The position numbers and the translations under genes are program-made. The notes below the pieces were generated by a model. That model did not search any database and was not told the DNA's origin. It saw nothing but the letters and a program-made list of their open reading frames with translations. From Eledone cirrhosa (Eukaryota), in assembly GCA_964016885.1 (NCBI GenBank), contig OZ024742.1, positions 183,520,001 to 183,584,000 on the forward strand: a stretch of 64,000 bases of DNA, given 5' to 3'. Within the stretch, counting starts at the first letter, position 1, and each line of letters begins with the position of its first letter. Shown one piece after another: positions 1-60,978 of the stretch.

Positions 1-3000
1 ACAGTACCATATATTCTAAACAGAACTAGGTACATTACAGTACCATATATTCTAAACAGAACTAGGTACATTACAGTACCATATATTCTAGACAGAACTA
101 GGTACATTACAGTACCATATATTCTAGACAGAACTCGGTACATTACAGTACCATATATTCTAAACAGAACTAGGTACATTACAGTACCATATATTCTAGA
201 CAGAACTAGGTACATTAGAGTACCTTATATTCTAGACAGAACTAGGTACATTAGAGTACCATATATTCTAGACAGAACTAGGTACATTACAGTACCATAT
301 ATTATAGACAGAACTAGGTACATTACTGTACCATATATTCTAGACAGAACAAGGTACATTACAGTACCATATATTCTAGACAGAACAAGGTACATTACAG
401 TACCATATATTTTAGACAGAACTAGGTACATTACAGTACCATATATTCTAGACATAACTAGGTACATTACAGTACCATATATTCTAGACAGAACTACGTA
501 CATTACAGTACCATATATTCTAAACAGAACTAGGTATATTACAGTACCATATATTCTAAACAGAACTAGGTACATTACAGTACCATATATTCTAGACAGA
601 ACAAGGTACATTACAGTACCATATATTCGAAACAGAACTAGGTACATTACAGTACTATATATTCTAGAGAGGAACAAGGTACATTACAGTACCATATATT
701 CTAAACAGAACAAGGTACATTACAGTACCATATATTCTAAACAGAACTAGGTACATTACAGTACCATATATTCTAAACAGAAAAAGGTATATTACAGTAC
801 CATATATTCTAAACAGAACTAGGTACATTACAGTACCATATATTCTAGACAGAACGAGGTACATTACAGTACCATATATTCTAGACAGAACTAGGTACAT
901 TACAGAACCATATATTCTAGACAGAACTAGGTATATTACAGTACCATATATTCTAGACAGAACTACGTACATTACAGTACCATAAATTATAGACAGAAGT
1001 AGGTACATTACAGTACCATATATTCTAGACAGAACTAGGTATATTACAGTACCATATATTCTAAACAGAACTAGGCACATTACAGTACCATATATTCTAA
1101 ACAGAACTAGGTACATTACAGTACCATATATTCTAAACAGAACTAGGTACATTACAGTACCATATATTCTAAACAGAACTAGGTGCATTAGAGTACCATA
1201 TATTCTAGACAGAACTAGGTACATTACAGTACCATATATTATAGACAGAACTAGGTACAATAGAGTACCATATAGTCTAAACAGAAATAGGTACATTACA
1301 GTACCATATATTCTAAACAGAACTAGGTACATTACAGTACCATATATTGTAAACAGAACTAGGTACATTACAGTACCATATATTGTAAACAGAACTAGGT
1401 ACATTACAGTACCATATATTCTAAACAGAACTAGGTATATTACAGAACGATATATTCTAAACAGAACTAGGTACATTACAGTACCATATATTCCAGAGAG
1501 AAGTAGCTACATTAGAGTACCATATATTCTAAACAGAACTAGGTACATTAGAGTACCATATATTCTAAACAGAACTAGGTACATTAGAGTACCATATATT
1601 CTAGAGAGAACTAGGTACATTACATTACCATATATTCTAAACAGAACTAGGTACATTACAGTACCATATATTCTAAACAGAACTAGGTACATTACAGTAC
1701 CATATATTCTAGACAGAACTAGGTACATTACAGTACCATATATTCTAGACAGAACTCGGTACATTACAGTACCATATATTCTAAACAGAACTAGGTACAT
1801 TACAGTACCATATATTCTAGACAGAACTAGGTACATTAGAGTACCATATATTCTAGACAGAACTAGGTACATTACAGTACCATATATTCTAAACAGAACT
1901 AGGTACATTACAGTACCATATATTCTAGACAGAACTAGGTACATTAGAGTACCTTATATTCTAGACAGAACTAGGTACATTAGAGTACCATATATTCTAG
2001 ACAGAACTAGGTACATTACAGTACCATATATTATAGACAGAACTAGGTACATTACAGTACCATATATTCTAGACAGAACAAGGTACATTACAGTACCATA
2101 TATTCTAGACAGAACTAGCTACATTACAGTACCATATATTTTAGACAGAACTAGGTACATTACAGTACCATATATTCTAGACATAACTAGGTACATTACA
2201 GTACCATATATTCTAGACAGAACTACGTACATTACAGTACCATATATTCTAGACAGAACAAGGTACATTACAGTACCATATATTCGAAACAGAACTAGGT
2301 ACATTACAGTACTATATATTCTAGACAGAACAAGGTACATTACAGTACCATATATTCTAAACAGAAATAGGTACATTACAGTACCATATATTGTAAACAG
2401 AACTAGGTGCATTACAGTACCATATATTCTAAACAGAACTAGGTATATTAGAGTACCATATATTCTAAACAGAACAAGGTACATTACAGTACCATATATT
2501 CTAAACAGAACTAGGTGCATTACAGTACCATATATTCTAAACAGAACTAGGTATATTAGAGTACCATATATTCTAGACAGAACAAGGTACATTACAGTAC
2601 CATATATTCTAAACAGAACTAGGTACATTACAGTACCATATATTCTAAACAGAACTAGGTATATTACTGTACGATATATTCTAAACAGAACTAGGTACAT
2701 TACAGTACCATATATTCCAGAGAGAAGTAGGTACATAAGAGTACCATATATTCTAAACAGAACTAGGTACATTAGAGTACCATATATTCTAGAGAGAACT
2801 AGGTACATTACATTACCATATATTCTAAACAGAACTAGGTACATTACAGTACCATATATTGTAAACAGAACAAGGTACATTACAGTACCATATATTCTAA
2901 ACAGAACTAGGTACATTACAGTACCATATATTCTAAACAGAACTAGGTACATTACAGTACCATATATTCTAAACAGGACTAGGTACATTACAGTACCATA

Positions 3001-6000
3001 TATTCTAAACAGAACTAGGTACATTACAGTACCATATATTCTAAACAGAACTAGGTACATTACAGTACCATATATTCTAGACAGAACAAGGTACATTACA
3101 GTACCATATATTCTAAACCGGAGAAGGTACATTACAGTACCATATATTCTAAACAGAACTAGGTACATTACAGTACCATATATTCTAGACAGAACTAGGT
3201 ACATTACAGTACCATATATTCTAGACAGAACTAGGTACATTACAGTACCATATATTCTAAACAGAACTAGGTACATTAGAGTACCATATATTCTAGACAG
3301 AACTAGGTACATTACAGTACCATATATTATAGACAGAACTAGGTACATTACAGTACCATATATTCTAGACAGAACAAGGTACATTACAGTACCATATATT
3401 CTAGACAGAACTAGGTACATTACAGTACCATATATTTTAGACAGAACTAGGTACATTACAGTACCATATATTCTAGACATAACTAGGTATATTACAGTAC
3501 CATATATTCTAGACAGAACTACGTACATTACAGTACCATATATTCTAAACAGAACTAGGTATATTACAGTACCATATATTCTAAACAGAACTAGGTACAT
3601 TACAGTACCATATATTCTAGACAGAACAAGGTACATTACAGTACCATATATTCGAAACAGAACTAGGTACATTACAGTACTATATATTCTAGACAGAACA
3701 AGGTACATTACAGTACCATATATTCTAAACAGAAATAGGTACATTACAGTACCATATATTGTAAACAGAACTAGGTGCATTACAGTACCATATATTCTAA
3801 ACAGAACTAGGTATATTAGAGTACCATATATTCTAGACAGAACAAGGTACATTACAGTACCATATATTCTAAACAGAACTAGGTACATTACAGTACCATA
3901 TATTCTAAACAGAACTAGGTACATTACAGTACCATATATTCTAGACAGAACTAGGTACATTAGAGTACCATATATTCTAAACAGAACTACGTACATTACA
4001 GTACCATATATTCTAAACAGAACTAGGTACATTACAGTACCATATATTCTAGACAGAACTAGGTACATTACAGTACCATATATTCTAGTCAGAACGAGGT
4101 ACATTACAGTACCATATATTCTAAACAGAACTAGGTACATTACAGTACCATATATTCTAGACAGAACTAGGTACATTACAGTACCATATATTCTAAACAG
4201 AATAAGGTATATTACAGTACCATATATTCTAAACAGAACTAGGTACATTACAGTACTATATATTCTAGACAGAACAAGGGACATTACAGTACCATATATT
4301 CTAGACAGAACTAGGTATATTACAGTACCATATATTCTAGACAGAACTAGGTACATTACAGTACCATAAATTATAGACAGAACTAGGTACATTACAGTAC
4401 CATATATTCTAGACAGAACTAGGTATATTACAGTACCATATATTCTAAACAGAACTAGGTACATTAGAGTACCATATATTCTAGACAGAACTAGGTACAT
4501 TACAGTACCATATATTATAGACAGAACTAGGTACATTAGAGTACCATATAGTCTAAACAGAAATAGGTACATTACAGTACCATATATTCTAAACAGAACT
4601 AGGTACATTACAGTACCATATATTGTAAACAGAACTAGGTACATTACAGTACCATATATTGTAAACAGAACTAGGTACATTACAGTACCATATATTCTAA
4701 ACAGAACTAGGTATATTACTGTACGATATATTCTAAACAGAACTAGGTACATTACAGTACCACATATTCCAGAGAGAAGTAGGTACATAAGAGTACCATA
4801 TATTCTAAACAGAACTAGGTACATTAGAGTACCATATATTCTAAACAGAACTAGGTACATTAGAGTACCATATATTCTAGAGAGAACTAGGTACATTACA
4901 TTACCATATATTCTAAACAGAAATAGGTACATTACAGTACCATATATTGTAAACAGAAGAAGGTACATTACAGTACCATATATTCTAAACAGAACTAGGT
5001 ACATTACAGTAACATATATTCTAAACAGAACTAGGTACATTACAGTACCATATATTCTAAACAGAACTAGGTACATTACAGTACCATATATTCTAGACAG
5101 AACAAGGTACATTACAGTACCATATATTCTAAACAGAACAAGGTACATTACAGTACCATATATTCTAAACAGAACTAGGTACATTACAGTACCATATATT
5201 CTAGACAGAGCTACGTACATTACAATACCATATATTGTAAACAGAACTAGGTACATTACAGTACCATATATTCTAAACAGAACTAGGTACATTACAGTAC
5301 CATATATTCTAAACAGAACTAGGTACATTACAGTACCATATATTCTAAACAGAACTAGGTACATTACAGTACCATATATTCTAGACAGAACTAGGTACAT
5401 TAGAGTACCATATATTCTAAACAGAACTACGTACATTACAATACCATATATTGTAAACAGAACTAGGTACATTACAGTACCATATATTCTAAACAGAACT
5501 AGGTACATTACAGTACCATATATTCTAAACAGAACTAGGTACATTACAGTACCATATATTGTAAACAGAACTAGGTACATTACAGTACCATATATTCTAA
5601 ACAGAACTAGGTACATTACAGTACCATATATTCTAAACAGAACTAGGTACATTACAGTACCATATATTCTAGTCAGAACGAGGTACATTACAGTACCATA
5701 TATTCTAAACAGAACTAGGTATATTAGAGTACCATATATTCTAGACAGAACAAGGTACATTACAGTACCATATATTCTAAACAGAACTAGGTACATTAGA
5801 GTACCATACATTCTAGAGAGAACTAGGTACATTACAGTACCATATATTCTAAACAGAACTAGGTACATTACAGTACCATATATTCCAGACAGAACTAGGT
5901 ACATTAGAGTACCATATATTCTAGACAGAACTAGGTACATTACAGTACCATATATTCTAAACAGAACTAGGTACATCACAGTACCATATATTCTGAACAG

Positions 6001-6122
6001 AACTAGGTACATTACAGTACCATATATTCTAAACAGAACTAGGTACATTACAGTACCATATATTCTAAACAGAACTAGGTACATTAGAGTACCATATATT
6101 CTAGACAGAACTAGGTACATTA
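1..6122. repeat. 36-bp tandem satellite, ~170 monomers (consensus ACAGTACCATATATTCTA[A/G]ACAGAACTAGGTACATT); continues beyond window start
   Basis: Direct reading; period 36, reflected in the 12-aa MYLVLFRIYGTV repeat of the ORF track; almost only substitutions, one 1-nt insertion near 670. Confidence 0.98.
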
Positions 6123-6123
6123 T

Positions 6124-6311
6124 AGTTGTTTCTACTTTAGGCACAAGGCCAGCAATCTTTTTTTAAGAGGAGTGGAAAGTCGATTAAATCGACACCAGTG
6201 CATTACTGGTGCTTTATTTTATCGACTCCGTAAGGATGAAAGGCAAATTTAACCTCGACGGGATTTGAGCTGCGACCGTAAAAGGGCGTAACTATATGCT
6301 ACAAAGCATGG
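6124..6311 (-). mobile_element. tRNA-derived SINE (octopus-type), 5'-truncated, terminating the satellite
   Basis: Reverse complement of the full copy at 50096-50283 (GAGTTCAAATCCCGCCGAGGTT..TTTGCCTTTCATCCTTACGGGGTCGATAAAATAAAGTACCAG..GCTGGCCTTGTGCCTAAAGTAGAAAC). Confidence 0.9.
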
Positions 6312-15676: not shown

Positions 15677-15743
15677 TTTTATTATGCGCATTTCAAAAAC
15701 AAACATCATCATGCAATAATATTTGTGTTTTCATCAGATAAAA
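15677..15743 (-). ncRNA. Minimal type I hammerhead (left arm of palindrome)
   Basis: Reverse complement of 15849-15915. Confidence 0.75.
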
Positions 15744-15848
15744 CAGGAGAACATGATATGAAGGCTAAAAAACACTTGTGGATAGTGCAGTTTTAAATCA
15801 ACTGCACTATCCACAAGTGTTTTTTAGCCTTCATATCATGTTCTCCTG

Positions 15849-15915
15849 TTTTATCTGATGAAAACACAAATATTATTGCATGATGATGTTTGTTTTTGAA
15901 ATGCGCATAATAAAA
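15849..15915 (+). ncRNA. Minimal type I hammerhead
   Basis: TTTTAT-CTGATGA-AAACAcAAATATT..TGTTTGTTTTT-GAAA-TGCGCA-TA-ATAAAA; helix I 6 bp, palindromic helix III AUGCGCAU, AUA site at 15909. Confidence 0.78.
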
Positions 15916-22906: not shown

Positions 22907-23097
22907 ATTTTGTCCTTCTTCTCTTCTCTCTTCTCTCTCTCCATGGTCGTTTAAATAAACGGTTGTTTTTCAATTATTTACATATTCATTTGCATATTCA
23001 CCCATAAGTTTGAAAAATCCCTAATACATTTCCACTATCCAGAGAATATCCAACTGATAAGGTATGGGTATGTCTCTATTTATAAAACAAACTTTGC

Positions 23098-23158
23098 ATT
23101 TTATCTGAAGAAAGCGCACCAAAGTCTTTTGGTACCCTTGAAATATATATAATAAAAT
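23098..23158 (+). ncRNA. Minimal type I hammerhead (family A, CUGAAGA)
   Basis: ATTTTAT-CTGAAGA-AAGcgcACCAAAG tc TTTTGGTaccCTT-GAAA-TATATA-TA-ATAAAAT. Confidence 0.8.
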
Positions 23159-23394
23159 AAATATGGTTTTATAAATATAGTTTCCATTTATTTAATATCA
23201 TTGAATATTTACTCCAGTAACTTGTTGGGTGCTCTAAATCAGTTATAAACATTTATATTTATATTTATATTTGTCGGATTTCCAACAAATTAAATACCCC
23301 TTCTACTTATACCACCACCACCCCACTCTCAAGAGCGTGAAACTAATAAACCTTTGTTCGTACTGCCTCTCTGTTTTGTTCCCGTTCAATTTTT

Positions 23395-24142: not shown

Positions 24143-24184
<42 letters not shown>

Positions 24185-24467
24185 GAGTCCCGGGTTCAAT
24201 CGGTGGGCAACCACAGTAAGGTGCTCAATAGATTAGTAGAGTGTTACCATTAAGTTTAATATAGCTTCTATATGGCTTCTACAGGACTAAAACTGTTTCA
24301 TTCGAAAGAAATGATCAGAGTTTTCCTGATGATTTCTTTGGAACGAAATAGTTCTAATTTTGACATACCTTAAACATTACAACTTCCATTTAAAAAGTTG
24401 ATTTTTAAATGGAAGTTGTAATGTTTAAGGTATGTCAAATTCATTTATAAAACGGTTTATATATTGT

Positions 24468-24531
24468 ATTTTGTCTGAGGAAGGCATACCATATTTTTAA
24501 TATGATATCCCTGAAATATATATAATGAAAT
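24468..24531 (+). ncRNA. Minimal type I hammerhead (family A, CUGAGGA), unit 1
   Basis: ATTTTGT-CTGAGGA-AGGcATAcCATATT tt tAATATGaTATcCCT-GAAA-TATATA-TA-ATGAAAT; site after 24524. Confidence 0.78.
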
Positions 24532-24647
24532 AAATATGGTTTGACATACCTTAAACATTACAACTTCCATTTAAAAGTTGATTTTTAAATAGAGGTTGTA
24601 ATGTTTAAGGTATGTCAAATTTATTTATAAAACGGTTTATATATTGT

Positions 24648-24711
24648 ATTTTGTCTGAGGAAGGCATACCATATTTTTAATATGATATCCCTGAAATATA
24701 TATAATGAAAT
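24648..24711 (+). ncRNA. Minimal type I hammerhead (family A, CUGAGGA), unit 2
   Basis: Identical to unit 1; site after 24704. Confidence 0.78.
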
Positions 24712-24977
24712 AAATATGGTTTTATAAATATAGTTTCCATTTGTTTAATATCGTAAACCAACTCCAAAACTTGTTGAGTGCTTTTATATCAGTTATAAAA
24801 TATTTACTCGTTGTAACCCAACAATTTTAAATAAAACTTTTGCATATATATATATATATATATATATAAGTGGTTACACAACAGTTAGTTCGTTCACCAT
24901 ACCGAGAACTTCTACCTAACTCGTCCCATGGACTGAGTGCTCTACCACTACGGATATTACCTTCCAGTGTTCTACCA

Positions 24978-26833: not shown

Positions 26834-28927
26834 CTAACAGTGCTGCGATCGAATGTGGCTTTTTAGCCCAGCCAATGATCTAAAATGTCTTGCACAGAGT
26901 CGGCAACCAAGACATTCACTGGGAATAGTCGGCTGTGGTTGGAGTTCGTGTACTTTTGCATGTCGCTTGAGCCCTCCTGCTGATTTACATTCTCTACCAC
27001 ATGTTTCGCAAGCATGATGAGTAGCATCTCCAACAGCAGCCTGGTAGTCAACCACTGGTCTTACTTTATGACTGCGAAGATGACTTTCGAGTCCAGCTTT
27101 GCTTAGGCAGAGTCTCGCACAGACGCTGCATGTCAGCACCATAGGAGGACCCTCGCCGTCTGGAAATGCAACAGCAATGCCCTTCCTCACATCCCGCTTT
27201 ACTTTCTCGTGTGCGATTCGAGATGCCTCAAAAGCAACTTTTCCCTCATATACAGTCTTTCTCCATTTATCAGCAGCAACATTTTCCCATGTATCAGCAG
27301 AGATATTAGCGTCTTTCAGAGAGGCTTTCAAGGAATCCTTATACCTCTTTTTTGGTTTATGTGGCGGTCGTTTTCCTTTAACCAACTCTCCATAGAAGAG
27401 TTGTTTTGGTATTCTAGAATCCTTCATCCTGGTAAGGTGACCACTCCAACGGAGTCGTTGCTTAAGCACAAGAGCTTCTATAGTGTCAAACATAGAGCTT
27501 TCCAAAATCTCGACATCACTGATGTGGTCCCTCCAGTGAACGCCATGGATCCGTCTGAGACACATCTGATGGAAACGCTCCAATTGCTTAAGGTGGTGTC
27601 GATATGTGACCCAGGTCTCGCAGGCATAAAGAAGACAAGAGAGTACGCATGCCCTGTACACCTTTACCTTTGTCCTCCTGCATATGTCTCGCCGACCCCA
27701 GAGTCGCCTTTCTAGCTTTCCGAAAGCATCCCTTGCTTTCCTAATCCTAAGTGAGATTTCACTGTCAAGGTTGCCGTATCGATTGACAGTGCTTCCCAAG
27801 TAGACAAACTGATCAACCACTCCAAATCGTTTGCCATACACATAGATGTTTGGTTCAGTGTACTGCTTACTAGGGGCAGGTTGGTACATGACGACGGTTT
27901 TCTTGAGACTGACAGTCAAACCCAGGGCAGTGTAAGCGTCAGAAAATGCATTCAAAATGTGCTGCATATCACTCTCTGTGTGCGCTACAAGATCGCAATC
28001 ATCTGCATACAAGAGGTCTCTTATGATTGATGTAAATACTTTTGTATTCGCAGCAAAGCGCCTGATGTTAAATATGCTGCCTGAGGTTCGATATCGGATG
28101 TAAACACCATGCTCGCAATTCCTGAATGCAATACAGAAAACCATTGCAAAGTATATGGCAAACAGGGTCGGTGCTGGAATATCCCCCTGTTTCACTCCAT
28201 TTTTTACTGAGATAGGCTCCGACATGTTACCTCCGACATTAACCCAAGCCTTCATGTCGTCATGGAAAGACCTAACTAAAGCAAGGAACTTATCAGGGCA
28301 ACCAAGTTTCTGGAGAACCTTCCATAATGCATCTCTGTTGACAGTATCGAAAGCCTTTGTCAGATCGACAAAAACCTGATACAGATCCAAGCCTTGTTCA
28401 ATGCACTTCTCCTGGAGCTGTCTAGCTGAGAAGATCATATCAGTAGTGCCGCGTCCAGCACGAAAACCAGATTGACTTTCAGGAAGAACACAATCTGCAA
28501 TGTGTGTCAGCAGACGGTCCAGAAGCACTCTACATAAAACTTTCCCTACGACAGAAAGCAATGATATACCTCTGTAGTTCCCACAATCATTCCTGTTACC
28601 CTTTCCCTTGTACAAGACCACCATTACTGCATCTCTCCAGTCATCAGGTACGGATTCATTAGCCCATATCCTTCCGAACAAAGAGTGCAGATGTTGCAGG
28701 AGTCTTTCACCACCATATTGTAGGAGCTCAGCATGTATGCCATCCATACCTGGAGATCTTCCACTGTTCAGCTTCGAAATAGCCACTGCAACCTCCACAA
28801 GCGTCGAAGGTTCTGCGAGAGCTACTTTCACAGGACTTTCTGGAATGAGATTGAGGAAATCTTCACTGACGACAGACGGCTGATTCAAAAGATCATCAAA
28901 GTGCTCTCGCCACCTTCGTAGAATTCC
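26834..28927 (-). CDS. RTE-clade LINE ORF, 5'-truncated: reverse transcriptase plus three C-terminal C2H2 zinc fingers
   Basis: GRSPGMDGI, NYRGISLLS, QSGFRAGRGTTD, FVDLTKAFDTV, GVKQGD, LLYADDCDL, YLGS, RLRWSGH; frame stays open upstream of the called start (GILRRWREHFDDLLNQP) to the truncation; no APE endonuclease left. Confidence 0.95.
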   Translation of the reverse strand, partial: GILRRWREHFDDLLNQPSVVSEDFLNLIPESPVKVALAEPSTLVEVAVAISKLNSGRSPGMDGIHAELLQYGGERLLQHLHSLFGRIWANESVPDDWRDAVMVVLYKGKGNRNDCGNYRGISLLSVVGKVLCRVLLDRLLTHIADCVLPESQSGFRAGRGTTDMIFSARQLQEKCIEQGLDLYQVFVDLTKAFDTVNRDALWKVLQKLGCPDKFLALVRSFHDDMKAWVNVGGNMSEPISVKNGVKQGDIPAPTLFAIYFAMVFCIAFRNCEHGVYIRYRTSGSIFNIRRFAANTKVFTSIIRDLLYADDCDLVAHTESDMQHILNAFSDAYTALGLTVSLKKTVVMYQPAPSKQYTEPNIYVYGKRFGVVDQFVYLGSTVNRYGNLDSEISLRIRKARDAFGKLERRLWGRRDICRRTKVKVYRACVLSCLLYACETWVTYRHHLKQLERFHQMCLRRIHGVHWRDHISDVEILESSMFDTIEALVLKQRLRWSGHLTRMKDSRIPKQLFYGELVKGKRPPHKPKKRYKDSLKASLKDANISADTWENVAADKWRKTVYEGKVAFEASRIAHEKVKRDVRKGIAVAFPDGEGPPMVLTCSVCARLCLSKAGLESHLRSHKVRPVVDYQAAVGDATHHACETCGRECKSAGGLKRHAKVHELQPQPTIPSECLGCRLCARHFRSLAGLKSHIRSQHC

Positions 28928-34031: not shown

Positions 34032-34734
34032 AAGTTTTTTTGGAAAAAATAACGTTTTTAAAAAAATGGCTGAAGCTTCTTCACCAACATTCGAAGGGGA
34101 AAAGGGGAAGATATGCTTACAGCTTCCCCCTTCCACTGTCATAGTAGCAGATGTCTCACCCAAGGGTCAGCCAGAGGAGGAATTTTCGAGGCAGCAGGCT
34201 TCGGACCCGTGTTCAGGGGCTGGATTGCTGCAATGCACATCAGCAACATCTGCTCAAGGGTCAAGGTGAACGGCTACCTTCGGAGCCCTTCCATATCACG
34301 CGATCCATCCGACAGGGATGCCCTCTCTCCTCCATTCTGTACATACTGACTCTCGAGCCACTACCGTGGAAGTTGGAGCATCCCTTTGGAACCGGGACTG
34401 CGAAAAGCGGCGTCGGCCTACGCCGACGACGTGACAGTAATGGTGTCGAGCACCTCGCAAATCGAGGAGGTCGGCACCTTACTGAAGGAATACGAAAGGT
34501 TCACAGGAGCGAAGCTGAACGGACAAATCCGTCGGTTTGCAACTCGGAACGTGGAGAGGCAAACCGATGCCTTCCGATGACGTCGTCGGACGCTGGACGG
34601 AAGGACCGGTAAAGCTGCTCGGGGTCTGGTTTGGCCCGGACCTCCAGGTGGAGAAGAACTGGAACGAAGTGACAGCCAAGGTGTTTGCGCTCATCCAGAA
34701 GTGGGTCAAGTGCAAACTATCCTTGAAAGGTCCT
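34031..34734 (+). pseudogene. Tx1/L1-clade LINE fragment (frameshifted RT), possibly fused to the element's 5' end
   Basis: GFGPVFRGWI..VKVNG, ITRSIRQGCPLS..LEPL, AYADDVTV, KLLGVWFG..LSLKG. Confidence 0.88.
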
Positions 34735-35984: not shown

Positions 35985-36840
35985 TTATGGAGGATAAGTA
36001 TCTGAAAGTGAGTTAAGTTTATATGAGAAGGAAAGCAAGTGTGATTTCATGTGTGGGCAACTGGTGAAAATTTCTGTTTTTGCATTTAGGCCGGTTTTTG
36101 GTGATTTAAGGTTCTGTAAAACCCAATATTTTTCACTTATGCAGAGTGCGCATCTTCTTGTTCCTCTTGCATATTCTTTAGATTGGTTCATAATTGACCA
36201 ATCTAATTTATATTGGATACCTTGGTCTTTCAAATCCCATATTCTGCTAGCCAGAGCTGTTGTAAATCTTTTTTCAGGATGTCGGAAAGATGCGACTTGT
36301 GAGTAATAACGCGTTTTGAATTTGTCTTGTGTCATACCCACATATCGTTCGCTGGTGGCTGGTAGGTTGTTGCTGGTGGTTGTCACTTTAGCTGCATATA
36401 CAATGGCTTTGGTGTTGCATTTACCTTGTAATGGGCATTCACTTTTGACTCTACAGGAGCAATGTTGATGTTCTCTGGGTATTTTCTTATTGAAGATATA
36501 AGATTTAATAGGGGGACCGCAGGAGTAGCTGATTTGACGCAGTTTCTATTGAAGATCTTATAGTATCTATGTGTTCTAGGGAAATGTTTATCTAAGAGCT
36601 CTAGGAATTTTTTGCCTACATTAGTTTTAACTTCTAAAGAGTAGGGGGTGTAAACCAGCTCATTTTTCTTTTCCTATTATTATGTTTAAAAGAGTTAGTA
36701 TTGTTGGGTATGTACTTAATCGGTTCGCTAAATCCTCTATTTTGAAGGGCTTTATTATAGTAGGAGGATGCCTTATTGAAAATAGCTTCTGAGGAAGAGA
36801 GGGTGGAGATCCTACGGCTAATATTAGGGATAATATTTTT
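35985..36840 (-). pseudogene. Penelope-like ORF C-terminus: linker + GIY-YIG endonuclease
   Basis: [57 protein letters not shown]; upstream NVGKKFL..DKHFP..KIFNRN with frameshifts. Confidence 0.9.
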
Positions 36841-38060: not shown

Positions 38061-38138
<78 letters not shown>

Positions 38139-38205
38139 CGTTATTCCGGGTTGAATCGGAGGTAACCACAGTAAGTAAGGTACTCAATACATTGCAGAGT
38201 ATAAA

Positions 38206-38327
38206 AGTTTTAATATAGATGAGATTCTACAGGACTAGAACTGTTTCATTCTTTAGAAATCATCAGATTCCTGATGATTTCTAAAGAATGAAACAGTTCT
38301 AGTCCTGTAGAATCTCATCTATATTAA

Positions 38328-38331
<4 letters not shown>
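38206..38331. repeat. Perfect ~126-bp palindrome centred next to a hammerhead core; related copy 24186-24357
   Basis: Each arm reads CTGATGA-tTTCtaaaGAAt-GAAA-cagttc-TA-GTCCTG. Confidence 0.9.
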
Positions 38332-42802: not shown

Positions 42803-43255
42803 CGAACCTTCAACCGTCAAGGTTGTTTTTCTACGGGTATGTCAACATTTATAAAACATATTTTGTATTTTATCTGATGAAAGCGCACCAAAATTGCCTT
42901 GGTTGCCCTTGAAATATATATAATTGTTTCTACTTTAGGCACAAGGCCACCAATTTACCAGTGCATTACTGGTACTTTATTTTATCGACCCCGTAAGGAT
43001 GAAAGGCAAAGTCAACCTCGGGATTTGAACTCAGATCGTAAAGGGACGTAACTATGCTGGAAAGCATGGCGTCCGACTCTCTACCGATACTGCCAATCCA
43101 CCAATTGAAATATATATAATAAAATAATTATGGTATTATAAATATAGTTTCCATTTATTACTATATTGAATATTTACTCCAGTAATTGAGTGCTTTATAT
43201 CAGTTATAAAACTTTTAAGCTTGTTGAATCCCAACAAATTAAATATAACTTCTCC

Positions 43256-43256
<1 letters not shown>
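42803..43256 (+). mobile_element. Family A hammerhead element interrupted by a SINE (42925-43104, minus strand, 16-bp TSD)
   Basis: Colinear with 56770-57093; TSD TTGAAATATATATAAT at 42909-42924 and 43105-43120. Confidence 0.9.
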
Positions 43257-43288
<32 letters not shown>

Positions 43289-48228: not shown

Positions 48229-48824
48229 TATATCATAAAACATGTCTATAGAATCACCAGATAAAATACATACCATTTCCTCTCCCTTAGGTTGAGATAC
48301 AATTTTGGCTGTATTGTGCTGCGCTTTCTAGCAAAAGGCCACCAGCCGTAAGCAACTAATCACATTCTTTCTAACCTGACCGCTGCTACGTCATGATTCT
48401 TAGCCATTTTTTAATGTATTCTTGGCGCGATCACTTTGGAGAATTTATTGTCTAAATTTGAGCTAACTTCCTGAAGAGTCCGGTGCTCTAGATGCCCGAT
48501 GCTATCAGATATCTTAAAATGCGGACGAAACCATGGTAGAGGTTACTAAACATGTTCACTTTTCTCCTAGTTTATTTTACACCTAATTATGTTTAGTTGA
48601 CTGTATATCTGGGCGATTTGTACACGCTGTCGAAATACTCGATAAATACTCCGTCGCAACCGGCGCGATGGGCTGCTTTCGGTTATTTGTCGGAGATTTC
48701 TTCATAGAAGCCTTTATTCTTATAGCTTGGTCTAATCGATTTTTTATATGGGTAATTATGCTAATTGGGAGAGGAAATGGTATATATTTTATCTGGTGAT
48801 TCTATATACATGTTTTATGATATA
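48229..48824 (+). mobile_element. ~600-bp non-coding element with ~58-bp terminal inverted repeats and a central hammerhead
   Basis: IRs 48229-48286/48767-48824; diverged relative at ~56385-56730. Confidence 0.8.
48464..48545 (+). ncRNA. Type I hammerhead, best-conserved copy
   Basis: TAACTTC-CTGAAGA-GTCCG..CGGAC-GAAA-CCATGG-TA-GAGGTTA; helix I 7 bp, G10.1-C11.1, palindromic helix III ACCAUGGU, GUA site at 48538. Confidence 0.88.
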
Positions 48825-53603: not shown

Positions 53604-54660
53604 GTGCGACGACGCGCTCGGAGAAACTCTAGGCGTAGAGGAGGATGAACTGGCCAGTCTGTTCGGTAAGACCTTCCGCCCGGGACCAATGGACAACTTC
53701 CAAAAGTCCCTGGCCTGACAGTACTACCGAGGAGCTCTAGCAGTTCGAGACAAGCTCTACAGACACGGGCGCCCTGGTAGGGACACTTCGAAAAAGATCT
53801 GTCCGAGATGCGTGCGCGACGAGGAAACCGTCGCGCACGCATTTGTACACTGCCCGGGCGTTACCGACCTGTGGGGCTATGTAGAACGACTATTATCGCG
53901 GGTGGGACCAATCCAGTTGACCACCGAGTCCATTGTCATGATCAAACCACCACCCTCCTTCAAAAACGAGGGAGAGGCGGTTTTCCTATGTGTTATGGCT
54001 ATGGTGAAAGAGGTTATATGGTGGACGAGGTTAAGAGGGCTGAGGTCAGACACCTTTCTCTCCGGCGAGCAACTGATTCGTTTTTCCAAATATCATTTTG
54101 GAAGAAGAATCAGGATGGAGAGAGAGGTGCTGTACCCCAGCACATTTTATAAAAGGTGGGTGAATGTGGCAAAGATGGGCCGAGTGGTTGGGTCTTCTCT
54201 CTCTATAAGCCTGTAGGTTGAGGAAAAAGAGGAAGAGAGGAAGGGAGTACTAACTCTTGGTGCTCCTGGAGATGAGGATTGTACATCTTTTCGGGGTGTG
54301 TACAACCCCTGTCTAACGCCCCCCCCCCCCCTATTGGGGATTTCAATTTTTATTTGTTATTTAATTAATAGTTTTATTTTCATATACCTGCATGTAAACT
54401 CCCATTTGTATTTGTCCCCTTCTTTTGTGCCCTTGTGGCTAATAAAGAAATTTATCTATCTATCAACACGCTCCTGAAGTTGAGGGTTGTTCTATCTACG
54501 GGGTATTAAACAACCCATTTGTGGCGCCTCCCCCCTATTGGGGATTTCGATTATTATAATTGTTTGTTTCAATATTTTTACACGACTGTATGTAAAATCT
54601 CCTGCATGTGTCTTTGTATTGTCCCCTTTTCTTGTGCGCCCTTGTGGCAAATAAAGTCAT
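53604..54660 (+). pseudogene. Tx1/L1-clade LINE 3' end: zinc-binding C-terminus (to 54216), 3'UTR, then a duplicated 3'UTR (~54470-54660)
   Basis: ALAVRDKL..EETVAHAFVHCP..LW..IWWTR motifs; AATAAA ends at ~54441 and ~54650; flanked by (TATC)n. Confidence 0.85.
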
Positions 54661-56273: not shown

Positions 56274-56831
56274 ATTTACATATACACAAACTAAACTAAG
56301 TCACAGATATATATGTGTTTTGGCAATCATTCACGATGTGGATCAATGAAGAATTAATAAATTAAATAATCAGAGCAATATACTATAATATATGTCCATA
56401 GAATCATTTGATAATATATATACACCATTTCCTCTCCCAATTAGCATAATTAACCACACAAACATTCAATTAGAACAGGCTATAAGATTAAAAGGCGCCT
56501 ATGAAGAAATAGTAAATAAATAAACTACACCAATCTCTTCGCGGCCAACCGCCATAGAATATTTACCCAACATTTCAACAGGACGTGGAAATCGATTAAA
56601 TATACGGTCAACCATAGAAAATAATCTGTCCTACCGAGTTTGTCTCCTGATGAGTTCGAAGCTCGAGATTTTATCCTTAATAAGATATATCAAAATGCGA
56701 ACGAAACCCAAGAGTGGGGACATAATCCTGGTATGTGTATAAGCATTTCTAACTAATAGATTATCCAGTGAACCTTCAACCGTCAAGGTTGCTTTTCTAA
56801 GGGTATGTCAACATTTATAAAACAAATTTTG

Positions 56832-56896
56832 TATTTTATCTGATGAAAGCGCACCAAAACTGCCTTGGTTGCCCTTGAAATATATATAATAAAATA
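56832..56896 (+). ncRNA. Minimal type I hammerhead (family A, CUGAUGA)
   Basis: TATTTTAT-CTGATGA-AAGcGCACCAA aactgcc TTGGTtGCcCTT-GAAA-TATATA-TA-ATAAAATA. Confidence 0.82.
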
Positions 56897-57146
56897 ATTA
56901 TAGTTATATAAATATAGTTTCCATTTATTAATATATTGAATATTTACTCCAGTAATAACTTTGTGATAGCCTATCTGAACAACAATATGTGATAGGGTCT
57001 CGTGTGCTTGTCACAATCGTTAGCGTGGCCCACGCTATCAGTTATAAAACTTTTAAGCTTGTTGACTCCCAACAAATTAAATATAACTTCTGCATATATA
57101 TATATATGTGTGTGTGTATGTATACATAGATATATATATATATTTG

Positions 57147-58344: not shown

Positions 58345-59305
<961 letters not shown>

Positions 59306-59344
59306 CATATATATATATATATATATTTCATATATATATATATT

Positions 59345-60341
59345 CCAAACACCCTAACAATAGACTACCCGTATTAGACACGGAACTCTGGATTAACACT
59401 ATAGACGAGAGAGCCCAAATTCTCCACTCACATTATGCTAAACCCATGGCCTCCAAATACCTGATACTCAAAAACTCATCAATGTCCAGTCGTGCTAAGT
59501 TTAGTATTCTGATCGCAGATTTGGTACGAGTGATGAAGAATGTGTCCCGCATGTGCGACCCAACAGAAATGGAAAGACACATCCAACACTTCATCAACCG
59601 CATGCAGTTCTCTGGTTACAACCAAAGAGACAGAGTCAGAGTATACAAAGGAGCCACGGAGAAGTATAAGACCCTCATAGAACTGGACATGAAAGGAATT
59701 TGCCCACTATACAGGAGCAAATCATGGAATAGCTTAGATAGGGCTAGACATAAGATAGGGAAAGCCACCTCATGGTACGACAACCAGAGATACCAGAGTG
59801 TCGTGTTTGTGGAAGCTACCCCTGGAGGGAAATTAGCTAACCAGTGTAGAAAGGCCCTGAGAAAGACCACTTAAAGATTAAGGTGGTAAAAAAGCCAGGA
59901 ACCACCCTAAAATCCCTGATCAGCAAAACCTACCCTTTTAAGAAAACCCACTGTACTAATAGGAAATGTATCATATGTAAGGTAAACCCCCGGATAAACT
60001 GTAAAACTAGAAACGTAGTCTATAGTATAAGATGTACAGCGGGTACTTGCAGAAACATGACAACAACATACATAGGCGAGACAGCTCGTAGCATAGGTGA
60101 AAGGATAGACCAACACTGGGGGGAACTAAAAGGACGAAAAAACGGTTCAGTACTATACGAACATGCCAGACAACAACACGACGGTAACATAGACAAGATA
60201 GAAAGTAGAATAATATCTAAACATAGAAATGACCCAGCAGATAGGCAAATCAGAGAGGCCAGTGAAATAGAACTTAGAAGGCCAAGGCTAAACAGAAAGA
60301 ATGAATGGAATAACAACAACACCCAAAACAAACAACACTGA
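59345..60341 (+). pseudogene. Penelope-like ORF 3' portion: RT C-terminus/thumb, Cys linker and GIY-YIG endonuclease, one frameshift near 59870
   Basis: RLPVLDTELW..HYAKPM..FSGY; C..C..C..NCKTRNVVYSIRC..YIGETARSIGERIDQH..S.LYEH..RQIREA..LNRKNEW. Confidence 0.9.
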
Positions 60342-60936: not shown

Positions 60937-60978
60937 AGCTGACAGTATGTTTCACGCTGGTTGGCGTTCATCAGAGCC
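60937..60978 (-). ncRNA. Minimal type I hammerhead
   Basis: Minus strand GGCT-CTGATGA-ACGC caacca GCGT-GAAA-CA tac TG-TC-AGCT; GUC site. Confidence 0.75.

Follow-up and report, generated by a model that had tools for sequence, protein, structure and literature searches.

Hydra-clade Penelope-like elements (PLEs), among them Hydra-1_Obim of Octopus bimaculoides, are described as having a single ORF with an RT followed by a C-terminal GIY-YIG-type domain, DKT, CxCx5C, CxxC and CxH motifs, a hammerhead in the 3' repeat and (TA)n targets (PMC8557442). Penelope/Poseidon elements show an inverted, 5'-truncated copy beside the main copy, a palindrome at the junction, a one-ended tail of 30-40 nt, a TCACT initiator-like motif in the pLTR and two fixed 3' ends (PMC3846280, PMC8557442, PMC11167929). 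The one-ended tail and the inverted copy are already known for PLEs, and the formation of their tandem and inverted structures and of the tail is named as unexplained in the published account (PMC8557442). The protein of an anole PLE, a predicted dimer, cuts and extends both strands; two internal starts define the tail, in vitro there is no strand preference between these start sites and no target homology, and the hammerhead is protein-assisted and dispensable for insertion (PMC11167929).

The hammerheads of PLEs have been described separately. Dimer-type hammerheads in pLTRs belong to type I and have a palindromic helix III and a long helix II, whose closing pair G10.1-C11.1 is described as highly conserved; minimal PLE hammerheads cleave weakly even as dimers, and opposite-strand hammerhead pairs 100-700 bp apart were already noted in Schistosoma (PMC4209133). 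Metazoan non-LTR retrozymes are short, low-GC, pLTR-derived tandem units, each with a type I hammerhead (PMC7229834; bioRxiv 10.64898/2026.07.22.740005), and efficient dimer cleavage is reported for amplified, expressed retrozymes (PMC7229834). Retrozymes are proposed to arise from PLE ends by local amplification, and a retrozyme dimer is defined for working purposes as two tandem units with a complete hammerhead and an MFE below -5 kcal/mol; one of nine Xenopus dimers tested cleaved (bioRxiv 10.64898/2026.07.22.740005).

The locus analysed here lies in a 64-kb stretch of Eledone cirrhosa DNA (the window, to which all bare coordinates refer). Our main reading, to which we assign a probability of about 0.85, is that it is a single-locus stutter at the terminus of a new Hydra-type PLE family: a pLTR was left as a 5'-truncated head-to-head insertion and, in the course of inserting or shortly afterwards, a hairpin-plus-hammerhead segment was duplicated here only, likely through slippage of the polymerase. 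The family shares the Hydra-clade features listed above, but differs from Hydra-1_Obim, which is described as 2,507 bp long with 'no pLTR', in that its unit is 3.9-4.0 kb long, ~1.4 kb of it 3' UTR, and shows clear pLTRs and partial tandems; a different hammerhead sequence and RWR instead of RWK mark it as a different family (PMC8557442). It likewise shares the features of Penelope/Poseidon, but its tail measures 91 nt, both of its ends lie at TA in the RNA (in vitro, target homology is absent in the anole PLE; PMC11167929), and both the rule that a pair combines one end of each kind and the non-nesting of arms were counted on 90 pairs. Unlike published metazoan retrozymes, the locus holds one unamplified dimer, known here from DNA alone, whose unit is still 98-99% identical to its parent pLTR. 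It differs from the dimer-type PLE hammerheads described in PMC4209133 in having A-U rather than G-C at 10.1-11.1, an 8-nt palindrome, and a motif spacing of 180 nt versus ~4 kb.

Tandem Repeats Finder reports a period of 180 nt with 2.0 copies and 97% matches over 24359-24722, in agreement with the head-to-tail repeat described in the initial annotation. Three substitutions and one indel separate the units, which measure 181 and 180 nt. The parts of the locus are listed below, with identities given against the full-length family copy L083:

24184-24356, no strand: left neighbour, a palindromic remnant of family 'B', a second hammerhead-bearing family, broken off where the tandem begins, with ~27 nt lacking up to its usual end
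24355-24404, minus strand: inverted-arm remnant, the reversed 5' part of the pLTR, forming the left stem and GTTGA loop of hairpin 1; 98% to L083 body 3708-3757
24359-24439, no strand: hairpin 1 with a perfect 38-bp stem, the head-to-head junction of two 5'-truncated pLTR copies, its centre shared with other loci
24402-24539, plus strand: pLTR copy 1, breaking off 15 nt past the predicted cleavage site; 99.3% to L083 body 3716-3856
24467-24532, plus strand: first type I hammerhead motif, with C3 at 24475 and the palindrome AUAUAUAU as helix III, predicted to cleave after A24524
24528-24551, plus strand: tandem junction with TTT microhomology; 1 exact genome match
24540-24619, no strand: hairpin 2, with one mismatch, one wobble and a one-base indel relative to hairpin 1
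24582-24844, plus strand: pLTR copy 2, complete to the long 3' end; 98.9% to L083 over 174 nt, tail differing at 2 positions
24647-24712, plus strand: second type I hammerhead motif, with C3 at 24655, predicted to cleave after A24704
24754-24844, plus strand: 91-nt tail between the short end (ATATCG before TA, after 24753) and the long end (TTTGCA before TA, after 24844); equals the 5' UTR start in full-length copies
24845-24868, no strand: (TA)n target microsatellite (Tandem Repeats Finder)

Both hammerheads have the type I arrangement CUGAGGA core...GAA-AUAUAUAU-A, with an 8-bp helix I that includes two G-U pairs and a 3-bp outer stem of helix II closed by AGG/CCU. The AUA cleavage triplets end at 24524 and 24704, which places the predicted cleavage sites 180 nt apart, as had been annotated; a hammerhead scanner gave 7 matches across the window, against none in any of 20 shuffled versions. 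At the gathering score Rfam returned nothing for the locus sequence, and below it no hammerhead match for either motif. A reading of the hairpin as a miRNA hairpin was rejected, as the sub-threshold Rfam matches were only generic hairpin scores. The hairpin had been described as perfect in each unit, which holds for hairpin 1 (38-bp stem, 5-nt loop, region z = -14.6), whereas hairpin 2 carries one C-A mismatch, one G-U wobble and an A run shortened by one base, all without compensation. In L083 coordinates, the locus reads minus 3708-3757, plus 3716-3856, the minus remnant again, and plus from 3716 to the long end, followed by (TA)n. The loop of hairpin 1 is element sequence and derives from the tail-less arm.

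A genome search with unit 1 returned 1,029 candidates, 40 of which were scored; these gave 85 matches, the near-full-length ones at 87-100% identity and mostly arranged as plus/minus pairs 99 nt apart, i.e., as palindromes centred on the hairpin-1 centre. The exact 57-nt hammerhead has 150 genome matches, and a 27-mer just upstream of it has 1,038. In twenty loci, picked for widely spaced matches, a unit of ~4 kb is present, arranged either directly or as an inverted pair. The tandem unit is the pLTR of a young and abundant PLE of ~4 kb whose protein has Hydra-clade motifs. L083 is made up, in order, of pLTR, tail, short 5' UTR, ORF, ~1.4-kb 3' UTR, pLTR and (TA)n; unit spacing is 3,980 in L083 and 3,924 in L084, L083 to L085 contain pLTR partial tandems, and the arms of the locus are 98-99% identical to L083. 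The subfamilies represented by L083, L084 and L085 have ~90% in common in the ORF and 70-85% in the ~1.4-kb 3' UTR.

L084 contains a 733-aa open stretch with YRDD and IIY..YVG..R, and its protein motifs comprise IRWRA, SDKTNN, YRDD, CNCRDRSKC (CxCx5C), IIY..YVG, CDLC (CxxC) and CRH (CxH). Among 8,000 proteins scored, 368 are homologs at E<=1e-10, the best named match being from Argonauta hians (39%); one of 21 aligned homologs matches RVT_1 and one matches GIY-YIG. Pfam gave no significant match for the element protein itself, and its profile matched none of the solved structures. The placement in the Hydra clade rests on motifs and on a by-eye comparison, in which the protein lines up with published Hydra proteins: there is a single ORF with RT and then a C-terminal GIY-YIG endonuclease, the motif set is present except for R in place of K in RWK, the pLTR bears a hammerhead, and insertion is into (TA)n. 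The pLTR partial tandems, the inverted 5'-truncated copy and the one-ended tail are general PLE features. Owing to its long 3' UTR, the 3.9-4.0-kb unit exceeds the 'generally short (<3 kb)' Hydra elements, a length given as a tendency of the clade and not as diagnostic (PMC8557442), and a long spacer ahead of the 3' pLTR is likewise reported for rotifer Pen1 (PMC3846280). For O. vulgaris, recently active Penelope-like families are listed, with no match for Hydra or ribozyme (PMC13282606).

The window contains further material of this kind. Family 'B' occurs at 24184-24356 and 38120-38330 in the form of small palindromes within (TA)n whose head-to-head arms are one long and one short, an architecture that it shares with the main family; 15 records matched it. 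An inverted hammerhead pair of a third family lies at 15683-15909 (palindromic helix III AUGCGCAU), and additional hammerhead motifs are found at 48471-48538 on the plus strand (palindromic helix III ACCAUGGU) and at 60941-60974 on the minus strand. Older pLTR relatives (73-84%), with covarying helices I and II, are located at 23067-23249, 43106-43272 and 56802-57107. By eye, we take 59296-60338 (+), 26837-28927 (-), 34148-34609 and 53719-54213 (+) to be a second PLE-like remnant (RT/GIY-YIG) and RT fragments of LINE-like type. A broken ORF at 36015-36834 (-) belongs to another Hydra-type PLE, 30-38% identical to the element protein, with a linker that by eye resembles the published Hydra-1_Obim. 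A 36-bp minisatellite of 170 copies fills positions 1-6126. Nothing near the locus was recognised as a host exon; the window's long ORFs are transposon remnants or simple repeats.

The ends of the family were analysed in two samples: all 72 loci behind the first 100 matches listed for the 27-mer (of 1,038), and the 47 loci behind matches 31-100 listed for the 57-nt hammerhead (of 150). Together they comprise 119 loci, with the tandem locus and the microsatellite-embedded L090 left out. Family copies stop at one of two bases, either the short end (ATATCG before TA) or, 91 nt farther, the long end (TTTGCA before TA), and at 101 of the 110 ends in the first sample (TA)3 or longer comes next. Head-to-head pairs occupy 88 of the 119 loci, with no pair in 31. 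Almost every pair (87/90, p=2e-22) combines one short with one long end, both in (TA)n; a separate BLAST-based count of such combinations gave 52/55 and 38/39 in separate samples. The junctions mostly show 0-7 bases of overlap, or a short insert. This head-to-head meeting of 5'-truncated copies recurs throughout the family; the hairpin at the locus is an ordinary inverted family junction and not the newly gained part that it had been taken for. The initial annotation's statement that other copies lack the hairpin applies only to the old 73-81% relatives in the window; across the genome, close copies mostly have it, at the middle of a larger palindrome.

How far the arms extend was compared in the 79 pairs with a clear junction, which omits 3 same-end pairs and 8 pairs with unclear junctions. 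The short-end arm reaches farther 5' in 36, which are mutually non-nested, the long-end arm in 24, which are nested, and 19 are tied; in 9 of the 79 the long arm consists of tail only. Nineteen of the 79 are ~470-bp palindromes, with both arms ending at a 5' hotspot. In the hammerhead-selected samples, one 25-nt bin (L083 body 3700-3724, with the TCACT motif) holds the 5' ends of 13/35 and 35/80 arms, 48/115 in all, while the flanking bins hold 0-2 and 2-9 arms, respectively. Lying at an initiator-like motif ~85 nt upstream of the hammerhead, the hotspot is presumed to be the transcription start site, and the same initiator-like TCACT is reported for a rotifer pLTR (PMC3846280); alternatively, it could be a site of polymerase stalling. 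The hairpin of the tandem locus is the usual family junction at this hotspot.

The arms of a pair are near-identical (42 pairs, 42/55 having arms long enough to compare), which suggests one RNA or one source, although later gene conversion could alternatively have produced the likeness. In L133 and L151, rare variants are common to both arms. The arms of L013 (G000:C13:32369146-32369423) differ at subfamily-type sites near the centre, and a two-template insertion is possible there.

For rotifer Penelope elements, junction palindromes, including a 38-bp one at the pLTR 5' end, are read as self-priming (PMC3846280), and fold-back of a single nucleic-acid strand could be put forward for the palindromes and the hairpin here as well. 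Near-identical arms with common rare variants, 24 nested pairs and 19 ties speak for such copying. However, simple fold-back is excluded for 36 of the 79 pairs, in which the short-end arm extends farther 5' and the tail is on the long-end arm; neither contains the other, so neither could be copied from it. Fold-back also gives no reason why the second arm should end at one fixed base beside (TA)n, it sits poorly with the 9 pairs whose long arm is tail only, and the hairpin loop at the locus belongs to the tail-less arm. As the sole mechanism it is therefore disfavoured, surviving only with a more-than-unit-length or antisense template, and we regard it as improbable. As neither arm of a non-nested pair holds all of the other, two RNA priming events are needed, and two reverse-transcription starts per insertion, one per strand, are likely; we infer that the family 3' ends are the start sites. 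The one-of-each rule further points to a single complex whose two active sites sit at two positions. No earlier report of this count or of the non-nesting argument was found in the mostly open-access literature covered.

The resulting hypothesis is that the element protein would cut (TA)n on both strands and that two cDNAs would be primed, one at each of two fixed sites that lie 91 nt apart in the RNA, a single RNA probably serving both. The two cDNAs would run toward the RNA 5' end, often reaching the presumed start site ~85 nt upstream of the hammerhead, and would be joined 5'-to-5' via microhomology, the join forming the hairpin. At the present locus, the left arm would then have been trimmed to 50 nt and 180 nt duplicated over the TTT microhomology, likely by polymerase slippage. 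Put more generally, PLEs may build inverted insertions by paired priming, in which a dimeric enzyme on one RNA starts one cDNA per fixed site and per strand of the cut (TA)n, with each site used exactly once per insertion; cDNAs that reach the RNA 5' end would yield the ~470-bp hammerhead palindromes, and slips at the junction, as here, tandem hammerhead dimers and possibly the birth of a retrozyme. The chances of this wider proposal being right seem to us about even.

Several features are particular to the locus: the left arm, cut to 50 nt, has lost the hammerhead and the short end, it adjoins the broken family-'B' palindrome, and 180 nt are duplicated. The tandem junction has one exact match in the 3.0-Gb genome; allowing 2 mismatches adds a single match (L159), which was rejected as a second copy since its sequence is unrelated. 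The longer arrays of the unit for which a genome search had been proposed were thus not encountered: among the 100 matches listed of the 150 exact hammerhead matches there is no other same-strand pair at sub-kb distance, and in 159 fetched locus records none closer than 477 nt. 'Just a local duplication', the second of the two readings in the initial annotation, fits these results. The units differ from each other (4 of 180) about as much as from L083, which gives the duplication much the same age as the insertion. Slips of this kind are frequent in the family: 5/42 pairs contain 12-27-bp duplications, and in L195 (G000:C9:25342280-25342800) and L036 the pLTR 5' end is repeated in short copies at the head-to-head junction, which suggests repeated re-priming at the template end. 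Candidate chimeric arms in L110, L113, L092, L141 and L111 were rejected, being short tandem duplications in one arm.

Palindromes next to microsatellites assemble poorly, and in four DNA contig sets from one study, in which the family is deeply covered, no piece spanning the tandem was found among the matches listed. An assembly artefact is nevertheless very unlikely, given that the units differ at 4 places, that neither of the two substitution motifs tested occurs in 156 further locus records, and that L195 and L036 show comparable stutters.

The initial annotation had also raised the possibility of a newly formed mini-retrozyme. In the full form of this reading, the transcribed dimer would self-cleave as a double hammerhead, releasing a mostly paired 180-nt RNA that circularises and can be amplified. 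The locus does consist of two tandem units in the 150-450 bp range, both containing an entire type I hammerhead with its conserved core, helices I and II and a palindromic helix III, and its MFE of -6.9 agrees with the working definition of bioRxiv 10.64898/2026.07.22.740005, a report whose proposed origin of retrozymes from PLE ends would also apply. The annotated dimer arrangement is upheld by computation, in that the double-hammerhead fold is nested, free of steric conflict and favoured by 3.3-10.3 kcal/mol over two monomer folds; the circular monomer is computed to be 74% paired. In an ordinary palindromic copy (L007) the hammerheads are paired to the antisense arm, whereas loss of that arm leaves the locus motifs unmasked. 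Of 39 motif variants, 34 have a palindromic helix III, with palindromes that differ between families, which makes the dimer design old and a property of the pLTR; helix II covaries from AGG/CCU to AAG/CUU. Given readthrough by a neighbour's transcript, the two hammerheads could cleave as a dimer.

Still, a retrozyme as a mobile unit finds no support. The tandem unit is not multiplied in arrays or dispersed copies, its junction and its close same-strand hammerhead pair having been met only once in the searches above, and the mutations of hairpin 2 are uncompensated. Moreover, the excised 180-nt piece has neither short end, long end nor tail, so the parent enzyme likely has no place to start on it and the product would be a dead end. 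On secondary structure energies only, the double-hammerhead fold lies 8.6-15.4 kcal/mol above the ensemble (a single motif 6.9-8.7 above), helix II closes with A-U, and the published record of one cleaving Xenopus dimer in nine and of weak minimal PLE hammerheads, cited above, is discouraging. We consider a newborn retrozyme improbable, even more so than fold-back. The single junction in 3.0 Gb and the missing 3' ends identify the tandem as a local stutter rather than a spreading retrozyme.

By itself, the locus is an ordinary transposon remnant. Its family identity, the uniqueness of its junction and the family-wide one-short-plus-one-long rule are shown; for the order of events, a single assembly is compatible with either course (left-arm deletion or non-standard priming, duplication on insertion or later). 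The locus provides a ready natural substrate for asking whether duplication of a pLTR suffices to start a retrozyme. With two sharp ends 91 nt apart, the family yields clean counts against single-strand fold-back, and these counts fit the two-strand, two-start, dimer behaviour of the single PLE studied in vitro. The family thereby bears on the origin of the tandem and inverted structures of PLEs and of their tail, which the account in PMC8557442 leaves unexplained.
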